DNA of 64,000 nucleotides from an uncultured Acidobacteriota bacterium (lineage in GTDB: Bacteria; Acidobacteriota; Terriglobia; UBA7540), in the NCBI GenBank assembly GCA_963804995.1, contig CAWDSK010000006.1, forward strand, positions 288,001 to 352,000, in the 5' to 3' direction. Position numbers and translations under genes: made by a program. The notes under the pieces are model-generated. The model was given only the letters and a program-made list of their open reading frames with translations, searched no databases and was not told the origin of the DNA. Shown here piece after piece: positions 3,260 through 14,861 of this stretch; the first letter of the stretch is position 1; the number at the start of each line of letters is the position of its first letter.

Positions 3260-4190
3260 CATCCTCAATGTAGGCATTGCTGGGTGAGCTCACGAAACTA
3301 GCGTTCGGCCAGATTCACCCAGGAACTCGAAGTGGGAGTGAAGTGCAGGTGAAAGCGCGGATGCCGCTGCAGCCACGTTTTCACGCGACGATGCTTGTGC
3401 GTGCCACATTCGTCCACGATCAAGTGCAGGTCCAAGGGCGGGGAAGCTTGGGTGATAATGTGCTTCAGAAGACGGATGCTTTCCCGATGCCGGTGCTGAG
3501 GCATGAAGTCGCCGGTGACCACCCCATCGAGCGTGCTGAGCACTGCGAACGGGATGGTCGTCCCATGGCGTTTGTAGTCGTGCGTCATCGTGCTACAACG
3601 TCCTTCCTTCATGGGCAGACCGGGCTGGGCGCGGTCGACGGTTTGGATTTGGATCTTCTCGCCGACGTACAAGACGAGTGCATTGTCAGGAGGTTTAGAT
3701 GGAAACCCACGATGTCGTGGAGTTTCTGCGCAAACTTAGGATCGCCCCACAGCTTGAAGGTTCGCACCCCATGGGGCTTAAGGTTGTGTTATTTCTAGAC
3801 GCAGCGAATGGTGGCTTCGCTAAGACCTTAGGCCCCAGCCATGCTGCGTGTGCTCAAATAGGTCGTGTGGGGCGGTCGGCTGTGTAGAATCGCCTCTAAG
3901 AAGGCGCGGACTTTGCTCTCCGCGATGCGTGGAATCCGACCGGGAAAAGGGGCGTCAGTCTCCAGCCCGGACGAGCACAGCGCCAAGAAGTGCTGCCACC
4001 AAAGCTGCACCCTCGGGCGGGATACTCCCAACTGTTGAGCAATCTCCCGCAAAGGATGCCGGTCGCAGCCATGAGGATGATCTGCGCACGCGGCACTACC
4101 CGCCGGGGCGGACTTCTGACCCGCGCCCAGACCTCCGGCGTGCTTCGCGCTTCTGGTGTCAAAAGGATCGAAGCTGCTCTTCTGATCATG
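3260..4190 (-). pseudogene. IS630-family transposase remnant
   Basis: IAQQLGVSRP HTH, THDYKRHGTT and FHLHFTPTSSSWVNLAER spread over broken frames; boundaries approximate. Confidence 0.85.
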
Positions 4191-4818: not shown

Positions 4819-5631
4819 ATGGACAAAAGCCACAACAGGAACCGCAGCCTTTCTGAACAGGCTTACCGCTTCATTCGGGACGGAATCCTACAAGGGCAGT
4901 TACCGATGGGCACTCCAATATCACGCCGGAAGTTGGCTCTCCAATTTGGGATGAGCCTCTTACCGGTCTCGGAGGCCATTCTGCGCCTCAAACATGAAGG
5001 GCTGGTGGAGAGTCGGCCCCGCGCGGGAACGAGGGTTCGCATTCCCACGCCACAAGAAATACGAGACCTCTATGTCATGCGGGAAGCCCTGGAAAGCCAA
5101 TCCGCGCGACTTTTTGCCGAGAAGGCTAGTCCCCGCGAACGGCGTGAGGTGCGCGAAATGGCGGAGAACTTGGACGCGAAGTTCGAGCAATGCAGGAACA
5201 AAGACGCTGATCCCAAAATCATTTATCACGCCTTCGATTATCATTTGTCATTACACGTGCGAATCGCCGAATGCACAGGGAGCATTGCTCTGCATAATGC
5301 GATCAAAACAAACAATCTCTTAATCTATAATTGGATTTTGGACATCGCAGCGCAAATGCCTATCCGTATGCCAGCGCACTATCATCGGAAAGTAATCGAT
5401 GTAATCGCGGGACCCGATCCCGAAGCGGCGGACGCTGCGATGCGCCAACACGTGCGCTCCGGCCTAAAAGAGACTCTGGCTGCGGCTATCTCCATCCTTG
5501 GGCCGGGCGTCGGTCGTTTCAAGCCATCGGGAGCGTCGCATTCGGTGTCGCAGTCAAATTCAGCAGCCCAAGGGACCTGGAGGTCTAGAGCTCAGCACGC
5601 CGTGCATCTGTCCTCAGACAACAACTGGTAG
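4819..5631 (+). CDS. GntR (FCD-type) transcriptional regulator
   Basis: wHTH SLSEQAY..GMSLLPVSEAILRLKHEGLV; C-terminal ADAAMRQHV; present TAG stop comes from the antisense intron end. Confidence 0.9.
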   Translation: MDKSHNRNRSLSEQAYRFIRDGILQGQLPMGTPISRRKLALQFGMSLLPVSEAILRLKHEGLVESRPRAGTRVRIPTPQEIRDLYVMREALESQSARLFAEKASPRERREVREMAENLDAKFEQCRNKDADPKIIYHAFDYHLSLHVRIAECTGSIALHNAIKTNNLLIYNWILDIAAQMPIRMPAHYHRKVIDVIAGPDPEAADAAMRQHVRSGLKETLAAAISILGPGVGRFKPSGASHSVSQSNSAAQGTWRSRAQHAVHLSSDNNW

Positions 5632-7583
5632 GGTCGGGAACTGGCGCGGCGGCTCCGAGAAAGCTCCGAGCCCCGTTTCCAGCTCCCGCCACATCACACG
5701 TAGCGTGCGGATTTCCCGCACTACGCGTTCCTGCACACTTCACGGCAAGGGTTATGGGGCCTATCGGGTCGGGGCGGCTGCCCAGGAGGATGACTGATGG
5801 ACCACGCGGTACTCGTGGAAGAGCCCGAGCGTGCCATACAGCCACTCCTTACGCCACCGCTTCCATCCGAAGCCTGGGCGTTGTCTGGCCCTCGCCAAGT
5901 GGCACCGAATCTTCTTCTCTACCCAGTCGCGGATATACGAGAAGCACCGGCTGGAGTGCCCGACCGCAAAGTAGTTCACCCAGCCGCGCAGAATGGGATT
6001 GATCTGCTCGATCAACCCCCTCACAGGCTGAGAGCGATAGCTCCGGAAAACTAGCTTGAGCTTGCGTAGCAATGCCGTCCGCTTCTTGCCCCGCGGCGTA
6101 CGCAGCGGCATCCATCGGCCCCGCCGACTGCGGATGCGACGGAACTCAAACCCCAGAAATCCGAAACTCTCTCCTTGCTGAAGATCCACCCTCCGGCTTT
6201 TCTCCTCGTTCACCTCAACCTGCAGCTTGGCCAACTCCTCCCGTAGCCGCTTTTCCACTGCCTTGCGAAGCCAGGCCTGCCGGGGATGAGCGTTCACCAG
6301 AACCACCAGATCATCGGCGAATCTGGCATATTCGACGTTCATCCACCGCCCCTCGCGGGTGACTTCCTTCGCCTTTTCCAGCATCTTGTCCACCTCATTG
6401 AGGTACACGTTACTGAGCAAGGGCGAAATCACCCCGCCTTGCGGAACACCCTGCTTCCCCGACGCCTTCAGCAGCAGTTTGAGCAGCCCTAGGACCTCGG
6501 TGTCGTTCACTCGCCGTGCCACCTTCTCCAGTACGAGGGAATGTCGAACCGTATCGAAGTAGGAACGCAAGTCGAGATCAACGACAAAGGTCATGTGCCG
6601 CACGATTGCCTCCGAGACGCGTTGAATCGCAGCGTGGGCTGACTTCTTCGGCCGGTAGCCAAACAATCCCGGTTGGAAATCGGCCTCAAAGATCGGTTCC
6701 AGGATCAGCTTCAACGCTCCCTGGACCACTCGGTCGCGAATGCAAGGAATCGAAAGTTGGCGAACCTTTCCGCCCTCCTTCGGAATCCCTACCTTCCGCA
6801 GCCGTCGAGGTCGATATCTCCGCTGCACCAGCTCCTCGCGAAGCTGTTCGAGAAATCCCTGCAAGCCTTCAGCCTCGATTGCCTGGAACGTGACCCCATC
6901 TACTCCTGGGGCTCCCTTGTTCTCCTTAGCTAGCTGATACGCTTCCCAGAGAGTTTCTCGTTTGCAGACGTGGACATACAACCCCCAGAATCGCCAAGTC
7001 GGTTCAGCCTTCGCCTTGACGTAAAGTCTTCGCCGCAGGTCTTGCAGCTTAAAGGGCGCTTTTATCATTTCACCCCTGCCTCCCATGTTGGCCAAGACTT
7101 GCTGTGCAGCAAGGCCCCTTCGCTCCATGGGCGTTACCCCACTTCGTCGCTACTTCGAGCCTAACCGCCACCGTCTCGCCGTCAGCCGATTTCCCGTTGT
7201 CTCCGGTTATACGGCCTACCCTGCTCCACCGATCTCTCGATGGGACGAGGACGGTTTCTCCAGTTGCTTGACATGCCCTTGCCACCGTGCTGCCCCTACC
7301 ACCCCGCCGGAGTGACATGTCGTCTCGGTCAGCCCACGTCATGCCATGCTGCCTTCGCCCCGAAGGAGAGGGCTCGGCCTCCGGATCTATTTTTTTGTCG
7401 AGGCCACCTATGGGTTCACTTGCGTTACGGCCCGGTGACTCGCTCACCATCCCTTGGATGGCTTTGTCGGTCAGCTTCATCCGCTTCGTTTCCTCCACGG
7501 ATGCGACCCAAGCTACAAGGCTCCTGACTCTTGCCTTGGTGGGACTAACTCCCACTGAACATACCAGCCTTTGCTGGACACAC
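5628..7583 (-). mobile_element. Group II intron, copy A (1956 bp)
   Basis: 5' GTGTG at 7583; 3' CCCGACCCTAC at 5628; domain V-like GTGCGGGAAATCCGCAC; EBS1 TCCTTC at 7362-7367. Confidence 0.93.
5761..7128 (-). CDS. ltrA: Group II intron reverse transcriptase/maturase, no endonuclease domain (start may be downstream)
   Basis: GAPGVDG, IPCIRDRVVQ, PQGGVISPLL, RFADD, domain X LRGWVNYF; carries PGLFG variant. Confidence 0.95.
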   Translation of the reverse strand: MERRGLAAQQVLANMGGRGEMIKAPFKLQDLRRRLYVKAKAEPTWRFWGLYVHVCKRETLWEAYQLAKENKGAPGVDGVTFQAIEAEGLQGFLEQLREELVQRRYRPRRLRKVGIPKEGGKVRQLSIPCIRDRVVQGALKLILEPIFEADFQPGLFGYRPKKSAHAAIQRVSEAIVRHMTFVVDLDLRSYFDTVRHSLVLEKVARRVNDTEVLGLLKLLLKASGKQGVPQGGVISPLLSNVYLNEVDKMLEKAKEVTREGRWMNVEYARFADDLVVLVNAHPRQAWLRKAVEKRLREELAKLQVEVNEEKSRRVDLQQGESFGFLGFEFRRIRSRRGRWMPLRTPRGKKRTALLRKLKLVFRSYRSQPVRGLIEQINPILRGWVNYFAVGHSSRCFSYIRDWVEKKIRCHLARARQRPGFGWKRWRKEWLYGTLGLFHEYRVVHQSSSWAAAPTR

Positions 7584-9539
7584 GTAGGGTCGGGAACTGG
7601 CGCGGCGGCTCCGAGAAAGCTCCGAGCCCCGTTTCCAGCTCCCGCCACATCACACGTAGCGTGCGGATTTCCCGCACTACGCGTTCCTGCACACTTCACG
7701 GCAAGGGTTATGGGGCCTATCGGGTCGGGGCGGCTGCCCAGGAGGATGACTGATGGACCACGCGGTACTCGTGGAAGAGCCCGAGCGTGCCATACAGCCA
7801 CTCCTTACGCCACCGCTTCCATCCGAAGCCTGGGCGTTGTCTGGCCCTCGCCAAGTGGCACCGAATCTTCTTCTCTACCCAGTCGCGGATATACGAGAAG
7901 CACCGGCTGGAGTGCCCGACCGCAAAGTAGTTCACCCAGCCGCGCAGAATGGGATTGATCTGCTCGATCAACCCCCTCACAGGCTGAGAGCGATAGCTCC
8001 GGAAAACTAGCTTGAGCTTGCGTAGCAATGCCGTCCGCTTCTTGCCCCGCGGCGTACGCAGCGGCATCCATCGGCCCCGCCGACTGCGGATGCGACGGAA
8101 CTCAAACCCCAGAAATCCGAAACTCTCTCCTTGCTGAAGATCCACCCTCCGGCTTTTCTCCTCGTTCACCTCAACCTGCAGCTTGGCCAACTCCTCCCGT
8201 AGCCGCTTTTCCACTGCCTTGCGAAGCCAGGCCTGCCGGGGATGAGCGTTCACCAGAACCACCAGATCATCGGCGAATCTGGCATATTCGACGTTCATCC
8301 ACCGCCCCTCGCGGGTGACTTCCTTCGCCTTTTCCAGCATCTTGTCCACCTCATTGAGGTACACGTTACTGAGCAAGGGCGAAATCACCCCGCCTTGCGG
8401 AACACCCTGCTTCCCCGACGCCTTCAGCAGCAGTTTGAGCAGCCCTAGGACCTCGGTGTCGTTCACTCGCCGTGCCACCTTCTCCAGTACGAGGGAATGT
8501 CGAACCGTATCGAAGTAGGAACGCAAGTCGAGATCAACGACAAAGGTCATGTGCCGCACGATTGCCTCCGAGACGCGTTGAATCGCAGCGTGGGCTGACT
8601 TCTTCGGCCGGTAGCCAAACGATCCCGGTTGGAAATCGGCCTCAAAGATCGGTTCCAGGATCAGCTTCAACGCTCCCTGGACCACTCGGTCGCGAATGCA
8701 AGGAATCGAAAGTTGGCGAACCTTTCCGCCCTCCTTCGGAATCCCTACCTTCCGCAGCCGTCGAGGTCGATATCTCCGCTGCACCAGCTCCTCGCGAAGC
8801 TGTTCGAGAAATCCCTGCAAGCCTTCAGCCTCGATTGCCTGGAACGTGACCCCATCTACTCCTGGGGCTCCCTTGTTCTCCTTAGCTAGCTGATACGCTT
8901 CCCAGAGAGTTTCTCGTTTGCAGACGTGGACATACAACCCCCAGAATCGCCAAGTCGGTTCAGCCTTCGCCTTGACGTAAAGTCTTCGCCGCAGGTCTTG
9001 CAGCTTAAAGGGCGCTTTTATCATTTCACCCCTGCCTCCCATGTTGGCCAAGACTTGCTGTGCAGCAAGGCCCCTTCGCTCCATGGGCGTTACCCCACTT
9101 CGTCGCTACTTCGAGCCTAACCGCCACCGTCTCGCCGTCAGCCGATTTCCCGTTGTCTCCGGTTATACGGCCTACCCTGCTCCACCGATCTCTCGATGGG
9201 ACGAGGACGGTTTCTCCAGTTGCTTGACATGCCCTTGCCACCGTGCTGCCCCTACCACCCCGCCGGAGTGACATGTCGTCTCGGTCAGCCCACGTCATGC
9301 CATGCTGCCTTCGCCCCGAAGGAGAGGGCTCGGCCTCCGGATCTATTTTTTTGTCGAGGCCACCTATGGGTTCACTTGCGTTACGGCCCGGTGACTCGCT
9401 CACCATCCCTTGGATGGCTTTGTCGGTCAGCTTCATCCGCTTCGTTTCCTCCACGGATGCGACCCAAGCTACAAGGCTCCTGACTCTTGCCTTGGTGGGA
9501 CTAACTCCCACTGAACATACCAGCCTTTGCTGGACACAC
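7584..9539 (-). mobile_element. Group II intron, copy B (1956 bp), directly abutting copy A
   Basis: 5' GTGTG at 9539; 3' end at 7584; EBS1 at 9318-9323 complementary to the 5' exon GAAGGA (9540-9545). Confidence 0.93.
7717..9084 (-). CDS. ltrA: Group II intron reverse transcriptase/maturase
   Basis: Same protein as copy A except PGSFG. Confidence 0.95.
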   Translation of the reverse strand: MERRGLAAQQVLANMGGRGEMIKAPFKLQDLRRRLYVKAKAEPTWRFWGLYVHVCKRETLWEAYQLAKENKGAPGVDGVTFQAIEAEGLQGFLEQLREELVQRRYRPRRLRKVGIPKEGGKVRQLSIPCIRDRVVQGALKLILEPIFEADFQPGSFGYRPKKSAHAAIQRVSEAIVRHMTFVVDLDLRSYFDTVRHSLVLEKVARRVNDTEVLGLLKLLLKASGKQGVPQGGVISPLLSNVYLNEVDKMLEKAKEVTREGRWMNVEYARFADDLVVLVNAHPRQAWLRKAVEKRLREELAKLQVEVNEEKSRRVDLQQGESFGFLGFEFRRIRSRRGRWMPLRTPRGKKRTALLRKLKLVFRSYRSQPVRGLIEQINPILRGWVNYFAVGHSSRCFSYIRDWVEKKIRCHLARARQRPGFGWKRWRKEWLYGTLGLFHEYRVVHQSSSWAAAPTR

Positions 9540-10148
9540 TCCTTCGCCAAAACTCCATCGGCTTGATCGCCCTTGATTCTTGAGCTGTTGTGGCTACCAA
9601 AAACCTCGTTCGCATTGAATCAATTGATGTTGGCCGGCCGCCGCTGGTATCGTTCCCAATCGGGCTCAGGTCGTAAGTCGGGCCGGTGCCGACCATTGCC
9701 ACACATAACTCAACTTTCCTCGAATGATCTGCGATTTGAGTATGCGACGAGATTTCAGGGCGCCAGTCACTTTTCCGGTAAGCGACAATACGCAGGTGCC
9801 TACACGCTGGATGTGGGGCCCGACGGGGACATGCCCTCCGAAGGCGAACGATTCATTCGGGGCAGCGGTCGGGCAAGTATTGCTCGCCACTCCAATGGCT
9901 CGGCGGTCCTACAGCAAGTGGAATACGCAGGGGAAGAAGTAGCTCTGAGTTCTCGGGCTATGGGAACTCGGCTCCTACCCCTCGGTTTAGGAAACCGGCG
10001 GTCGGCTTTCTATGGCTGACGGCAACTTGCTTGGAATCCTTATGTTCCAGCCACTTTTGACACGCATAAAATAACCGTTGTAGTCACTTTTGTAGCTGGT
10101 GACTTCCGCACGTTTCTACAACCCTGGGCACCCAAGCGTTTACTAGGC

Positions 10149-10503
10149 TAGAGCGGTTTCGATTTAAGTACTTACATGCCCGCAAGAGGCGAAGAAGTTT
10201 GTGCATTCGCTTGGGGAGACCGTATTGAGCAATTCCCCGATTTCCTTCCAGAGGGCATCGATATCTCGTTTGGCGGCTTTGCGGAGCAGCGCCTTGAGTT
10301 TGGAAAAGAACCTTTCGATCGGGTTCAGGTCCGGGGAGTAGGGAGGCAGATAGAGTAGGGTGGCTCCGGCCGCGGTGATCGCTTTCTCCACTCCCGCCAC
10401 CTTGTGACTGCTGAGGTTGTCCAGAATCACGGTGTCTCCCGGTTGGAGCGTTGGGCACAGGAATTGATGCACATAAGCCAGAAACATCTCGCCGTCCATC
10501 GGC
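10149..10503 (-). pseudogene. IS630-family transposase C-terminal fragment with terminal repeat
   Basis: VILDNLSSHK and LPPYSPDLNPIE; TA-GAGCGGTTTC end at 10149; cut at 10503 by the next IS. Confidence 0.9.
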
Positions 10504-11806
10504 TGTCCCTACCAATAATCTCGTTCATCTTGAAATCATTGATTTTCTCGGGAAACGTCGTTAGGCTCCCTCGTCCATGTTTATCCCACTCCTTTCCGCA
10601 TTGGTTAGCATCCGATCTTGGTTTCGAAATCGAGCAATGCTGCAAATGGAAAACCTTGCCCTGCGCCACCAACTGACAGTTCTTAAAAGGTCTCAGCGTG
10701 GCCGGCTTCGTCTGGACTCCGCCGACCGATGGCTTTGGATTTGGCTCTCTCGCTTCTGGTCGAACTGGCGCTCGGCGTTGCTCATCGTCAAGCCCGAAAC
10801 GGTAATCGCCTGGCATCGCCAGGGATTCCGCTGGTATTGGAGATGGAAGAGTCGGCACGGCGAGCCGGGAAGGCCTACCATCGAGTTGGAGGTTCGGGAG
10901 TTGATCCGAAAGATGAGTCTGGCGAACCCGCTCTGGGGAGCACCCCGTATTCATGGGGAATTGCTCAAGCTCGGAATCCAAGTGTCACAAGCCACAGTCG
11001 CGAAGTACATGGCTCGGCAACGAAGACCGCCATCCCAGACGTGGCGTACTTTCCTTGAGAACCACGTGCAGCAGTTGGTTGCGACGGACTTCTTCGTCGT
11101 GCCGACCGTCACTTTTCGACTCCTATACGTCTTTATCGTCTTGGCGCACGATAGGAGACGCCTACTCCATTTTAACGTCACCGCCCATCCCACTTCCGAA
11201 TGGACGGCGCAACAGCTGGTTGAGGCGTTCCCTTGGGACAGCGCGCCACGCTACCTGCTCCACGATCGCGACTCGATTTATGAAGGGTCATTCCGTTAAC
11301 GAGTTCGGAGGATGGCGATTCAGGAAGTTCTGACGGCCCCCAGATCGCCTTGGCAGAATCCATACGTTGAGCGCCTAGTGGGCTCGATCCGGCACGAGTG
11401 CCTGGACCATGTTGTTGTGTTCAACGAGTCTTCACTGCGTAGCCTTCTAAATTCTTACTTCGCGTATTACCTACGTTCGCGAACACATTTGGCGTTGGCG
11501 AAGGATGCCCCGGAAGCGAGGGTTATCCAAGGGCCGGAATTCGGTGCCGTGGCAGAGATCCCCGAAGTCGGAGGACTCCATCACCGTTATGAACGGAGAG
11601 CAGCTTGAAGCGTCATTCCCCCAAGAGACAGTCTTGAGTCTCCTTCCGGTGCCAGCAGACGTTGGCGTTGGATGACAGAACCACGGATCGATTCCAGGAC
11701 CCGTCTCCTTGAGAACGATGGTGAGGATATCATGCGGTGCTGCTGGGAGGGTCACGGAGCCATGACGGATTATCTTCCTACTGCGATCGAGTTTTTGGTA
11801 TGGACA
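10504..11806 (+). mobile_element. IS481/IS3-like insertion sequence (1303 bp)
   Basis: Imperfect IRs TGTCCCTACCAATAATCTCG and TGTCCATACCAAAAACTCG (reverse complement); no target duplication. Confidence 0.8.
10577..11608 (+). pseudogene. Integrase-core (rve) DDE transposase with in-frame TAA at 11297
   Basis: ENLALRHQL, WGAPRIHGELLKLG, ATDFF, LHDRDS, PWQNPYVER, GGLHHRY. Confidence 0.9.
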
Positions 11807-12461
11807 GGAGGCGGCGCGAGTGCAGGAGTGGCGAGCCCTGGACGCCATCTACTCGCTGGGAGAGTTCCACTTGCAGCTCTTCGGGTGGGATCAGGAAAGG
11901 CGCTTCGTGGTGGTGCGAGAGCAACTGCGGGAGACGAAGCGTTCGCCGGGCCGGAAATTATTGGAAGTTCCTGGTTACACCTTTCGAGTTTTCGTCACCA
12001 ACCTGCCCGATCCGCCAGAAGAAGTCTGGCGGGACTATAACCAGCGGGCCTGCGTGGAGCAACGCATCGAGGAGTTGAAGTCGGACTTGGGCGCAGACGA
12101 TTTCTGCCTGCGGGAATTCTTCGCCACCGAGGCGGTGTTCCTGAGCATTCTGATGCGGTTCAACCTGCTGGGGGAGTTCCAACGCGCCAGTGGGATGACC
12201 GGCTACCGACAGCCGGCCAGCTTGCGGGTGCAGGTGTTCCTGTGCGGAGCGATCCTGGGCCGTGCGGGCCACCGACCGGTGCTCCATCTGTCGGCCGCCT
12301 GGGGAGGCTTGGGAAAACGCAACTTCCTGTTCGACAACCTCTTGGCGTATGAAATCCCAACTTCGCGCAAGTTGGAATTGCAACCACACGGGGCGGGGTG
12401 AAGCACGGCCTCCAAACCCTAGCCCGGAGGCTAAGAACTTCGTTCAACTTACGAATTCGGG
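11807..12461 (+). pseudogene. IS1380-family transposase C-terminal fragment with right end
   Basis: FVTNL and YNQRACVEQRIEELK; ends GAATTCGGG followed by TTAA. Confidence 0.8.
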
Positions 12462-12964: not shown

Positions 12965-13867
12965 TCACTCCCCGGCAAGCTCCCTCCGCAGGTTTTCCCA
13001 CAACGCCTGCTCCCGGTGATAAGGATCATTGGCCAGCACCTGTTCTCTGGAGCTCAGGTCGGCGAGAAACCGGAAGCCGCTGGCGCAATCGGCGCAAATT
13101 CTCTCGCGGTCGATCCTCGCGTCACGGCGCACCAAGTCCCGTAAGTCGTCCCAGTCAAATTCCCTGCCCTCCTCAAATTTCCTCATGAGGCGCGCGGGAT
13201 CGAAGGTATCGCCCGCCTGCCAAAGCTTCAGCACCACAAGCCGGCGAATAAGCGGATAATCGATCGGCCGTGTCGCGTACATCCCGAGGTCGTAAATGTC
13301 GCGCGCCTTGTTGCGCTGATAACAGGCGCGGATTTTTTCAGCAAGAATTTCGGGCAGCGCCAGGCAGGTGATCTCGGCGGGGGCGAAAGGCAAGAGCCTG
13401 AAATAAGTCTGTTCGTATTGTGGCCGCCGCTCGGGCGGGAGCGTCGGCGTCTCGCGACGGCTGATCTGCAGTTTTATTTGGCTGTCGCCTGCCACGTTCC
13501 AATCATGCGAATAGGTCGGATTCACACCCCATGACAGACCGTCCTGGGTCTCGTAATAACTGTTATCAGGAATGTGGAACCTGATCCCGTGAAATTCCTG
13601 CTCGAAGGCCCCCATCATGGCGAGGATGACATCCTCGTGATCGTGCTCCTCAAGCGCGGTGAAATCCAGATCAGTGGAGAACCGTGCATGGCTTCCGATG
13701 AACATCTTCCGAAGACAGGTGCCACCCTTGAAGGCCAACCTGTCCAGAATGCGGTGCTCCGAGAGAAGCTGAAGCAAAAAGGTCAGGACGATTTCCTTTT
13801 CAGCGATCATCATGTCGCGAAGACCGGACTGGGTGGAGTAACGCCGCACCTCGGGTTGCGTAAGCAT
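12965..13867 (-). CDS. abiEii: AbiEii-family nucleotidyltransferase toxin (type IV TA)
   Basis: FKGGTCL, RFSTDLDF, EILAEK, KARDIYDL. Confidence 0.9.
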   Translation of the reverse strand: MLTQPEVRRYSTQSGLRDMMIAEKEIVLTFLLQLLSEHRILDRLAFKGGTCLRKMFIGSHARFSTDLDFTALEEHDHEDVILAMMGAFEQEFHGIRFHIPDNSYYETQDGLSWGVNPTYSHDWNVAGDSQIKLQISRRETPTLPPERRPQYEQTYFRLLPFAPAEITCLALPEILAEKIRACYQRNKARDIYDLGMYATRPIDYPLIRRLVVLKLWQAGDTFDPARLMRKFEEGREFDWDDLRDLVRRDARIDRERICADCASGFRFLADLSSREQVLANDPYHREQALWENLRRELAGE

Positions 13868-13869
13868 GC

Positions 13870-14733
13870 TTACCCGTCCTTCTTGAGCGCTCTTCCCCGG
13901 CCTAGCCCGGCGCTTTCATGCAGTTCTTCTCCCGACACGTTCACGAACAGATGCCATGTCTTGTCATAGCCGATGGCGCCGGGAACTTTGTGTGCGGGAT
14001 TCGATCCCATCCATGTCCGGGGGCCGCGGGCGGCGAGGTCAAGCAGCCTTTCGCGGACGGCGGTGGGCATGTCCGCCTTGACGTGATCCATCACCCAGCC
14101 GAATCTACGGACCAGCGCAATCGAATCGATCCGTTGGAGATAGTCTGCCGCCTTTGGCCAATCAAAACGGCGACTGGCCGCCGCCAGAATGGAGGCGGCC
14201 TCTCCCACGCCACCGGCCAGCGTCGGGCGGTCGATGCAGTCGATGGCCGTCTTTTCTCGATCGGACATCATGACTTTGTAGCCGAGGACGTCGACAGGAG
14301 CGAATCCGAAAAATTTCGCAGGCTTGGGATTGACGATCCGCACCCGTCCCTCCCCGACCTGCCGACCCCGCAGGCGCGTCGGCGTGACGAGTACGATCAA
14401 CCGGCGATGCTGTGTCGTTAGCCCGTAGTGCTCGGCGGCGCTGCCGTATCCGATGTAGTAGGGATCGGCGATGCGGCTCGCTAGCGCGAGGAGATTGCTT
14501 TCGCCCAGGGCAGCGGGCCCCTGGTCGGGCGGGATGACGAGGTACTCTCCCCAGCTCGCCCGCTCGAGCCACCCTTTCCGGCGCAGCGATTCAATTACCT
14601 TGTCAGCCGCCTTGGCGCTACCACCCAGCAGTTGGACAATCTCCGGCCGGCCCACTTCGCGCCGTTCTTGTTCGGCGAGGGCAAGCACAACTCGGCTCTC
14701 CTGTGGCGATAAGGTGCGGACGGTGAAATCCAT
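13870..14733 (-). CDS. abiEi: AbiEi-family antitoxin/transcriptional regulator
   Basis: wHTH (LRRKGWLER), YYIGYGSAAEHYGLTTQ, SDREKTAIDC; 2 bp upstream of the toxin gene. Confidence 0.88.
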   Translation of the reverse strand: MDFTVRTLSPQESRVVLALAEQERREVGRPEIVQLLGGSAKAADKVIESLRRKGWLERASWGEYLVIPPDQGPAALGESNLLALASRIADPYYIGYGSAAEHYGLTTQHRRLIVLVTPTRLRGRQVGEGRVRIVNPKPAKFFGFAPVDVLGYKVMMSDREKTAIDCIDRPTLAGGVGEAASILAAASRRFDWPKAADYLQRIDSIALVRRFGWVMDHVKADMPTAVRERLLDLAARGPRTWMGSNPAHKVPGAIGYDKTWHLFVNVSGEELHESAGLGRGRALKKDG

Positions 14734-14749
14734 AATATTCTTACTCACA

Positions 14750-14772
14750 AAACCCCCTGTTTTAGGGGGTTT
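14750..14772. promoter_or_regulatory. Inverted repeat upstream of abiEi, candidate operator
   Basis: AAACCCCCT-N5-AGGGGGTTT, 17 bp before the ATG. Confidence 0.5.
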
Positions 14773-14861
14773 CGATGAACAAAATATCATCTCAGGCCTT
14801 GCATGTCAATCATGTGCAGATATTTCCCCTCAAAGGGGGCTGGCCTTAACTGATTATAAGC

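Follow-up and report, generated by a model that had tools for sequence, protein, structure and literature searches.

The window, meaning the whole stretch of 64,000 nucleotides that was analysed, contains two 1956-bp copies of a group II intron joined head to tail with no exon between them, as confirmed by pairwise comparison of the copies. The pair is probably a real tandem, formed when a second intron re-homed into the occupied exon/intron junction of the first. The new and testable part of this explanation is an apparent independence from EBS3 pairing in introns of class F/g2.

Both units lie on the minus strand. On the intron strand, copy B (7584-9539) is the upstream unit and copy A (5628-7583) the downstream unit, and the tandem periodicity stops exactly at 5628 and 9539, which are the intron ends. 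The order on the minus strand is a 5' exon ending in ...GGCGAAGGA, then B, then A, then CAGTTG.... The 3' end of B (...CCCTAC) meets the 5' end of A (GTGTG...) between 7584 and 7583, within the junction region 7574-7593 (-), with zero extra bases, and this exact junction omits the 5' exon bases that are common to the other insertion sites. The first-pass annotation had described the exonless joint and one difference between the copies, and both descriptions held: the full comparison of the copies finds a single mismatch, at 6665 and its partner 8621, so that residue 135 of the protein (435 aa) is Leu in A and Ser in B. The exact junction of a 3' end with a 5' end, with IBS1 and IBS2 intact upstream, corresponds to a product of tandem re-homing. 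It does not correspond to a twintron, where one intron is nested within another, since A and B abut end to end. Copy B has the majority state of the six genome copies at all five variable columns; it is likely the later arrival, and copy A is likely the first.

The intron boundaries were fixed from six copies with different flanks, and the ends, GTGTG...TAC, agree with the group II ends 5' GUGYG and 3' AY. The domain I model RF02003 gave 125.9 bits vs 49. Folding yielded a domain V (D5) hairpin with a 5-nt loop at 7652-7686 in B and 5696-5730 in A, followed by a long domain VI (D6; fold z of -4.39) with a bulged A, at 7588-7646 in B (bulged A at 7590) and 5632-5690 in A (bulged A at 5634), all on the minus strand. 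The Rfam D5/D6 model gave no match to the intron even at E ≤ 1. The start of D5 appears to be AAC at both 5696-5730 and 7652-7686 of the window; the usual opening of D5 is AGC or CGC.

Each copy contains a minus-strand reading frame for a reverse transcriptase (RT)/maturase, at 7717-9024 in B and at 5761-7068 in A, the latter with Ser135Leu; the length of 435 aa is counted from the likely start codon. The protein has RVT_1 and GIIM domains, and its RT and maturase (X) parts were recognised by PF00078, PF08388 and TIGR04416, all above cut-off (368 bits for TIGR04416, cut-off 300). The domain profile search found no endonuclease domain in it. The RT5 motif is FADD and not YADD, with F in 120/120 homologues, and FADD is typical of group g2, class F introns (PMC3552965). 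The absence of the endonuclease, the 5-nt D5 loop and the long D6 also agree with class F/g2, where the RNA criteria for IIE and IIF are those of PMC3753933. In pairwise comparison with three named introns of groups g1 to g3, the protein identity is 49% to B.th.I3 (g2), 38% to Ni.ha.I1 (g3) and 31% to Sr.me.I2 (g1). As judged from these sequence characters, class F/g2 is the best fit for both introns.

EBS1 (UCCUUCG; 9317-9323 in B, 7361-7367 in A) pairs at 7/7 positions with the exon before B and at 0/7 with the bases before A, which bears out the earlier statement that only B is preceded by an IBS1. In the 5' exon, IBS1 occupies 9540-9546 and IBS2 occupies 9548-9552 (together 9540-9552), and a candidate EBS2 (9349-9353 in B, 7393-7397 in A) is complementary to exon positions -9 to -13. 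The first base of the 3' exon, IBS3, is C at 5627. The delta-prime G at 9361 (7405 in A) pairs with the delta C at 9324 (7368 in A). In the wider family, delta and delta-prime pair and covary in 51 of the 52 EBS1 types, which supports a IIB-type layout. All these elements are on the minus strand.

The intron sits at the tip of a terminal inverted repeat of TGTCC type, 2 nt from the repeat end; the view of the host site in the first-pass annotation had missed this IS end. The inner part of the repeat lies at 9540-9565 (+), and its first 2 bases (5626-5627) lie beyond the far side of the dimer. A split transposase of IS3/IS481-like type, which scored below the cut-offs of both families, is located at 10577-11806 (+), and an inverted partner end of the repeat lies at about 11783-11806; the two ends are putatively parts of one element. 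Fragments of DDE_3/IS630 and IS1380 transposases at 3298-3672, 10164-10499 and 11820-12401 of the window belong to the same IS-rich region, and an AbiEi/AbiEii type IV toxin-antitoxin-like pair is present at 12965-14790 (-).

The reading frame of a GntR/FCD regulator (4819-5631, +) has its stop codon within the antisense intron, and its product is 270 aa with the introns vs 281 aa without them. Because the intron is antisense to the gntR tail and the longest intron-strand frame is 108 codons (the three stop-to-stop frames over the empty site measure 40, 108 and 29 codons), no consequence of splicing is evident. No host protein appears to need the splicing of the intron, and the locus looks neutral for the host. 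No sigma-70 promoter or terminator was found in 9000-10600, and no orthologous empty allele in the two relatives with a gntR match. The GC skew is too weak to call the leading or lagging strand.

Single-copy sites elsewhere in the genome, which the first-pass annotation had proposed to look for, were found: the assembly contains four further full single copies of the intron and one 92% partial copy. None of the six full copies differs from B at more than 4 positions, and the presence of six near-identical copies at five sites would be an indirect sign of mobility. Most of the sites resemble a transposon-type terminal repeat matching EBS1/EBS2. The +1 base is C at 6/6 intron sites of this genome; this C belongs in part to the IS end itself and is therefore no proof of selection by EBS3. 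At C1:135710-140389 (partly L223), a 4.68-kb element has two empty, near-perfect target ends with +1 = C, so the choice of an occupied site is not explained by target saturation. The element encodes an IS481/IS3-like protein (below cut-off) and a 697-aa serine-recombinase-like protein, and a near copy of the AbiEi/AbiEii antitoxin region seems to border it. No second dimer was found in the 7.55-Mb assembly, which contains two head-to-tail duplications of at least 500 bp. The other one is an ISKra4-family pair (contig C2:49368-53070, L256) with a period of 1847 bp and a 10-bp direct repeat in common. In the same assembly, another group II intron family with about 40 sites shows 0/41 3' ends adjoining an intron 5' end, and C follows every one of these 41 3' ends.

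The single difference between A and B does not show that the copies are independent. All five variable columns among the six copies show a C/T exchange within one of the contexts GGAT[C], GT[C]GAG and GT[C]GTC, and the change at 6665 lies in GGAT[C]. Among 165 repeat-copy differences outside the intron, these contexts account for 10, 22 and 8, vs 0.8, 0.21 and 0.15 expected by context, that is, 40/165 over the whole assembly at GGAT[C/T], GT[C/T]GAG and GT[C/T]GTC. Since the context is change-prone in this assembly, the difference is weak evidence for independent copies. Furthermore, two variable columns show every one of the four allele combinations, and the changes strike residues that are invariant in 120/120 homologues, namely Ser135 (copy A) and Asp166 (three copies); the Leu135 protein is on record from this contig alone. 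These context-bound changes fit either consensus error at methylated motifs, which is known from nanopore data (PMC6591954), or real deamination hotspots. A premature-stop test for basecalling error gave 22/662 vs 117/7839. Single-base calls in this genome need care.

The dimer itself might be an artefact in which the assembler doubled one copy, or in which the contig tracks a minority allele or circular intron DNA. This explanation is favored by the probable error at the only difference, by the fact that the other tandem duplication of the assembly is likewise a multi-copy element, and by the direct evidence coming from one assembly, with no read spanning the locus among the runs examined: none of 23 sequencing runs holds half of the 64-kb stretch, and a contig of run X2, considered as support, crosses the junction by 26 nt, below the 31-nt bar, and was not counted. 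However, the boundary of the duplication tracks the splice sites and not the limit of the shared sequence, which includes the 5' exon. The dimer is on a contig of 2.17 Mb, the other intron family of similar size has no tandem ends, and the mixed pairs in other genomes described below need real adjacency. An artefact is thus unlikely.

The same junction occurs in relatives. The survey query was a 21-nt degenerate junction pattern built from the intron ends of this lineage, and it covers this lineage only. It detected 27 loci in eight other genomes, all MAGs, with two trimers each counted twice, and 82 metagenome stretches, of which 80 were listed. The D6 end matches at 27/27 genome loci and 78/80 listed stretches. 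The 107 loci show 74 different junction strings, and both outer flanks are visible at 16; short metagenome contigs with no flanks may derive from circles. The junction was found in no viral contig and in 0/72,556 plasmid records (none at 80% query coverage), and the family examples are MAGs or metagenome contigs throughout. A Bradyrhizobium plasmid with two back-to-back ltrA genes was considered as a tandem and rejected as a twintron in domain V. On this B. japonicum plasmid (L216, NZ_CP126016.1 200263-204108), a relative with 69% protein identity is inserted in domain V of a group II intron that is unrelated to it.

One trimer has ORF-less units of 830, 815 and 827 bp, and the other has three full introns of 1994 bp each (L038/L039 and L047/L048). 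In same-genus genomes, ORF-less relatives of 727 bp (L005, G001) and 771 bp (L008, G026) occupy the same kind of target end. In G102, an ORF-less relative of 927 bp occupies about 33 sites, which lie within domain V of other group II introns (with loci L032, L036, L037, L041, L046, L051, L052 and L056). The ORF-less copy of G101, with C at EBS3, stands directly before another intron at 7/26 sampled sites (5/27 by a stricter count), and that of G102, with G at EBS3, at 9/33 sites, which sit within other introns and may lack independence.

Mixed pairs consist of an ORF-less intron upstream and an ORF-bearing relative downstream. The upstream unit has 0-2 differences from the pure ORF-less copy and the downstream unit has 61-77, running from position 12-37 to 9-31 nt short of the end. 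A single crossover with a circle would yield chimeras, and the purity of the mixed units shows that tandems of this family can do without circle recombination. EBS1 of the upstream unit pairs with the outer exon at 6-7 of 7 positions in 31/32 cases, compared with 64/934 for cross-pairs; L089, which is among the passing rows, is a nested intron and an invalid test, without which the count is 30/31, and the sole exception, L072, seems to come from a longer loop misread by one base. EBS1 of the downstream unit finds at most 4/7 pairs with the end of the upstream intron (45 types). Insertion at the 3' (intron/exon) junction was rejected, with EBS1 pairing at 0/7 positions with the intron's own end. 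In G101, the +1 base of the ORF-less intron is G at 18/19 single sites. The G101 mixed pairs with a visible outer end (three loci, two distinct flanks) have +1 = C, as at the single site of the ORF-bearing partner. As these pairs end in C although the single sites of the ORF-less intron have G, the upstream unit came second.

Recombination with a circle, proposed earlier as an alternative, would proceed from an excised intron RNA circle through a DNA circle into the resident copy, leaving a tandem in which the circle junction is kept. True circles are made in vitro by the class F intron Ge.ur.I1-1 (PMC3753933) and perfect head-to-tail RNA circles in vivo by Ll.LtrB (PMC6248898). The route does not depend on EBS3 pairing, and the likeness of A and B is too close for a crossover to be either revealed or excluded. 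Against it, no DNA circle was seen here, and the non-chimeric mixed pairs show sequential insertion in this family, even with an intron whose EBS3 is G; we regard it as improbable for the present homodimer. Arrival of both copies in one event, by an end-to-end template switch of the RT onto a second intron RNA or by mobilization of a pre-formed dimer RNA, seems less probable still. The upstream unit then need not recognize the target and the G.G mismatch discussed below is avoided, and the position of the ORF-less intron directly upstream of 6/10 ORF-bearing copies in G102 could reflect movement as a unit. However, the upstream EBS1 fits the outer exon, and does so better than the downstream EBS1 where the two differ, with 7 Watson-Crick pairs vs 5 plus 2 wobble pairs in L037 and L051, and this genome has no second dimer.

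The earlier proposal that the second intron homed into the 5' exon/intron junction is therefore strengthened by the family evidence and by laboratory precedents, with the small share left to circle recombination noted above. According to this re-homing proposal, copy A would have retrohomed first, at a site with +1 = C. Such an insertion leaves IBS2/IBS1 intact, as the sequence shows, and now facing the intron's own first G. A second RNP may then have reverse-spliced at the occupied junction and been copied by the RT, with the G.G mismatch at EBS3 tolerated.

The first-pass annotation had missed the identity of EBS3, the base at issue in this last step. Of 420 columns, intron position 285 (9255 in B, 7299 in A, minus strand) shares the most mutual information with the +1 exon base, although narrowly (0.51 vs 0.49). 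It pairs with the +1 base in 17/21 groups, the misses being G.G, A.G twice and C.C; the G101 intron, with its preference for +1 G, carries C there, and the G102 intron, whose sites have +1 C, carries G. Positions 228-232, which belong to the internal loop beneath the EBS1 hairpin, were rejected as EBS3 for showing no covariation with +1. From this covariation, EBS3 of the present intron is inferred to be G and not the U or C that could pair with G1, so the second insertion meets a G.G mismatch. Upstream units in the family are similar: over 19 EBS1 types, 12 have G and 4 have A at position 285, a purine in 16/19 (15/18 without L089), with U found in 2 and C in 1, and in 12 relatives outside such junctions it is G in 10, A in 1 and U in 1.

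Several observations count against the best explanation, among them the direct evidence from one assembly, the empty near-perfect targets on C1 and the limitation of family examples to MAGs and metagenome contigs, all described above. Two ORF-bearing copies of G101 have C at position 285 and yet have +1 = C. In addition, all 88 of 88 events in an RmInt1 selection had Watson-Crick EBS3 pairs (PMC4075523), and an RmInt1 construct carrying compensatory changes, although it homed to the wild-type target, failed to home to a +1G target (PMC3123198); by analogy, the rules of wild-type RmInt1 would forbid a target with +1 G. IBS3 is dispensable for the excision of RmInt1 (PMC4075523; PMC3123198).

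It is conceivable, at somewhat less than even chances, that class F/g2 introns routinely re-home into occupied exon/intron junctions of their own or of relatives without pairing of EBS3 to G1. If this is true, dimers, trimers and mixed pairs of ORF-less and ORF-bearing introns would be a normal genomic state, at about 1/4 of the sites in two high-copy genomes, the landing site would be remade by every insertion, and whole arrays might be spliced or moved together. Recognition of the 3' exon in DNA by class F/g2 would be looser than that by RmInt1, and class F/g2 tandems with a purine at EBS3 would mean that the EBS3-pairing rule is not general, which bears on models of intron copy-number growth and on targetron design. 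No report of natural tandems independent of EBS3 was found in the literature searched, largely open-access main texts.

If the locus is transcribed, B may splice first and thereby restore IBS1 for A; alternatively, the 5' half of B may use the 3' end of A, so that both leave at once. The earlier expectation that A could splice only after removal of B therefore stands as a possible order but not as an obligatory one, since the 5' half of B could use D5/D6 and the 3' splice site of A. The C of the 3' exon of A matches EBS3 and could serve this skipping route, and C.te.I1 is a precedent for alternative 3' splice sites (PMC4424553). Ordered splicing would have no apparent consequence at this locus.

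Tandem re-insertion as a type of event is already known from three laboratory systems, and the papers on them each credit a U or C at EBS3 that pairs with G1 (PMC4615759, PMC4075523, PMC12584367). RmInt2 of Sinorhizobium meliloti GR4 (class D, PMC4615759) is, like the present intron, endonuclease-less and homes into IS inverted repeats, and its second insertion produces two head-to-tail copies. However, that product is from a plasmid assay and its EBS3, U, pairs with G1, whereas the pair described here is a natural locus of class F/g2 with EBS3 = G. The tandems of EcKTE56.groEL (IIB1, PMC12584367) have the same exact junction of 3' end and 5' end at the exon/intron boundary, and the ORF-deleted form gave 22.4% tandems vs 4.2%, an excess that resembles the dominance of ORF-less copies in the natural G101 and G102 pairs. 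They differ in coming from an over-expression assay in E. coli, in the U.G wobble at EBS3 and in the intron class. Retargeted RmInt1 likewise placed a second copy at an occupied site, but with an engineered C at EBS3 pairing with G1 (PMC4075523).

Of natural introns, the B.th.I3-type of class F/g2 shares FADD, an RT-X protein of about 435 aa and an intron length of about 1.96 kb (PMC3552965), and B.th.I3 itself shows the 49% protein identity given above and similar intron ends; tandem arrays are not mentioned in the portion of PMC3552965 on which this comparison is based. Bacterial and archaeal twintrons resemble the present pair in that repeated homing builds multi-intron stacks outside essential genes, although in those the intron is nested inside another, while here the copies abut (PMC4424553). 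By analogy with these systems, the present locus would work like the laboratory tandems but without their proposed cause.
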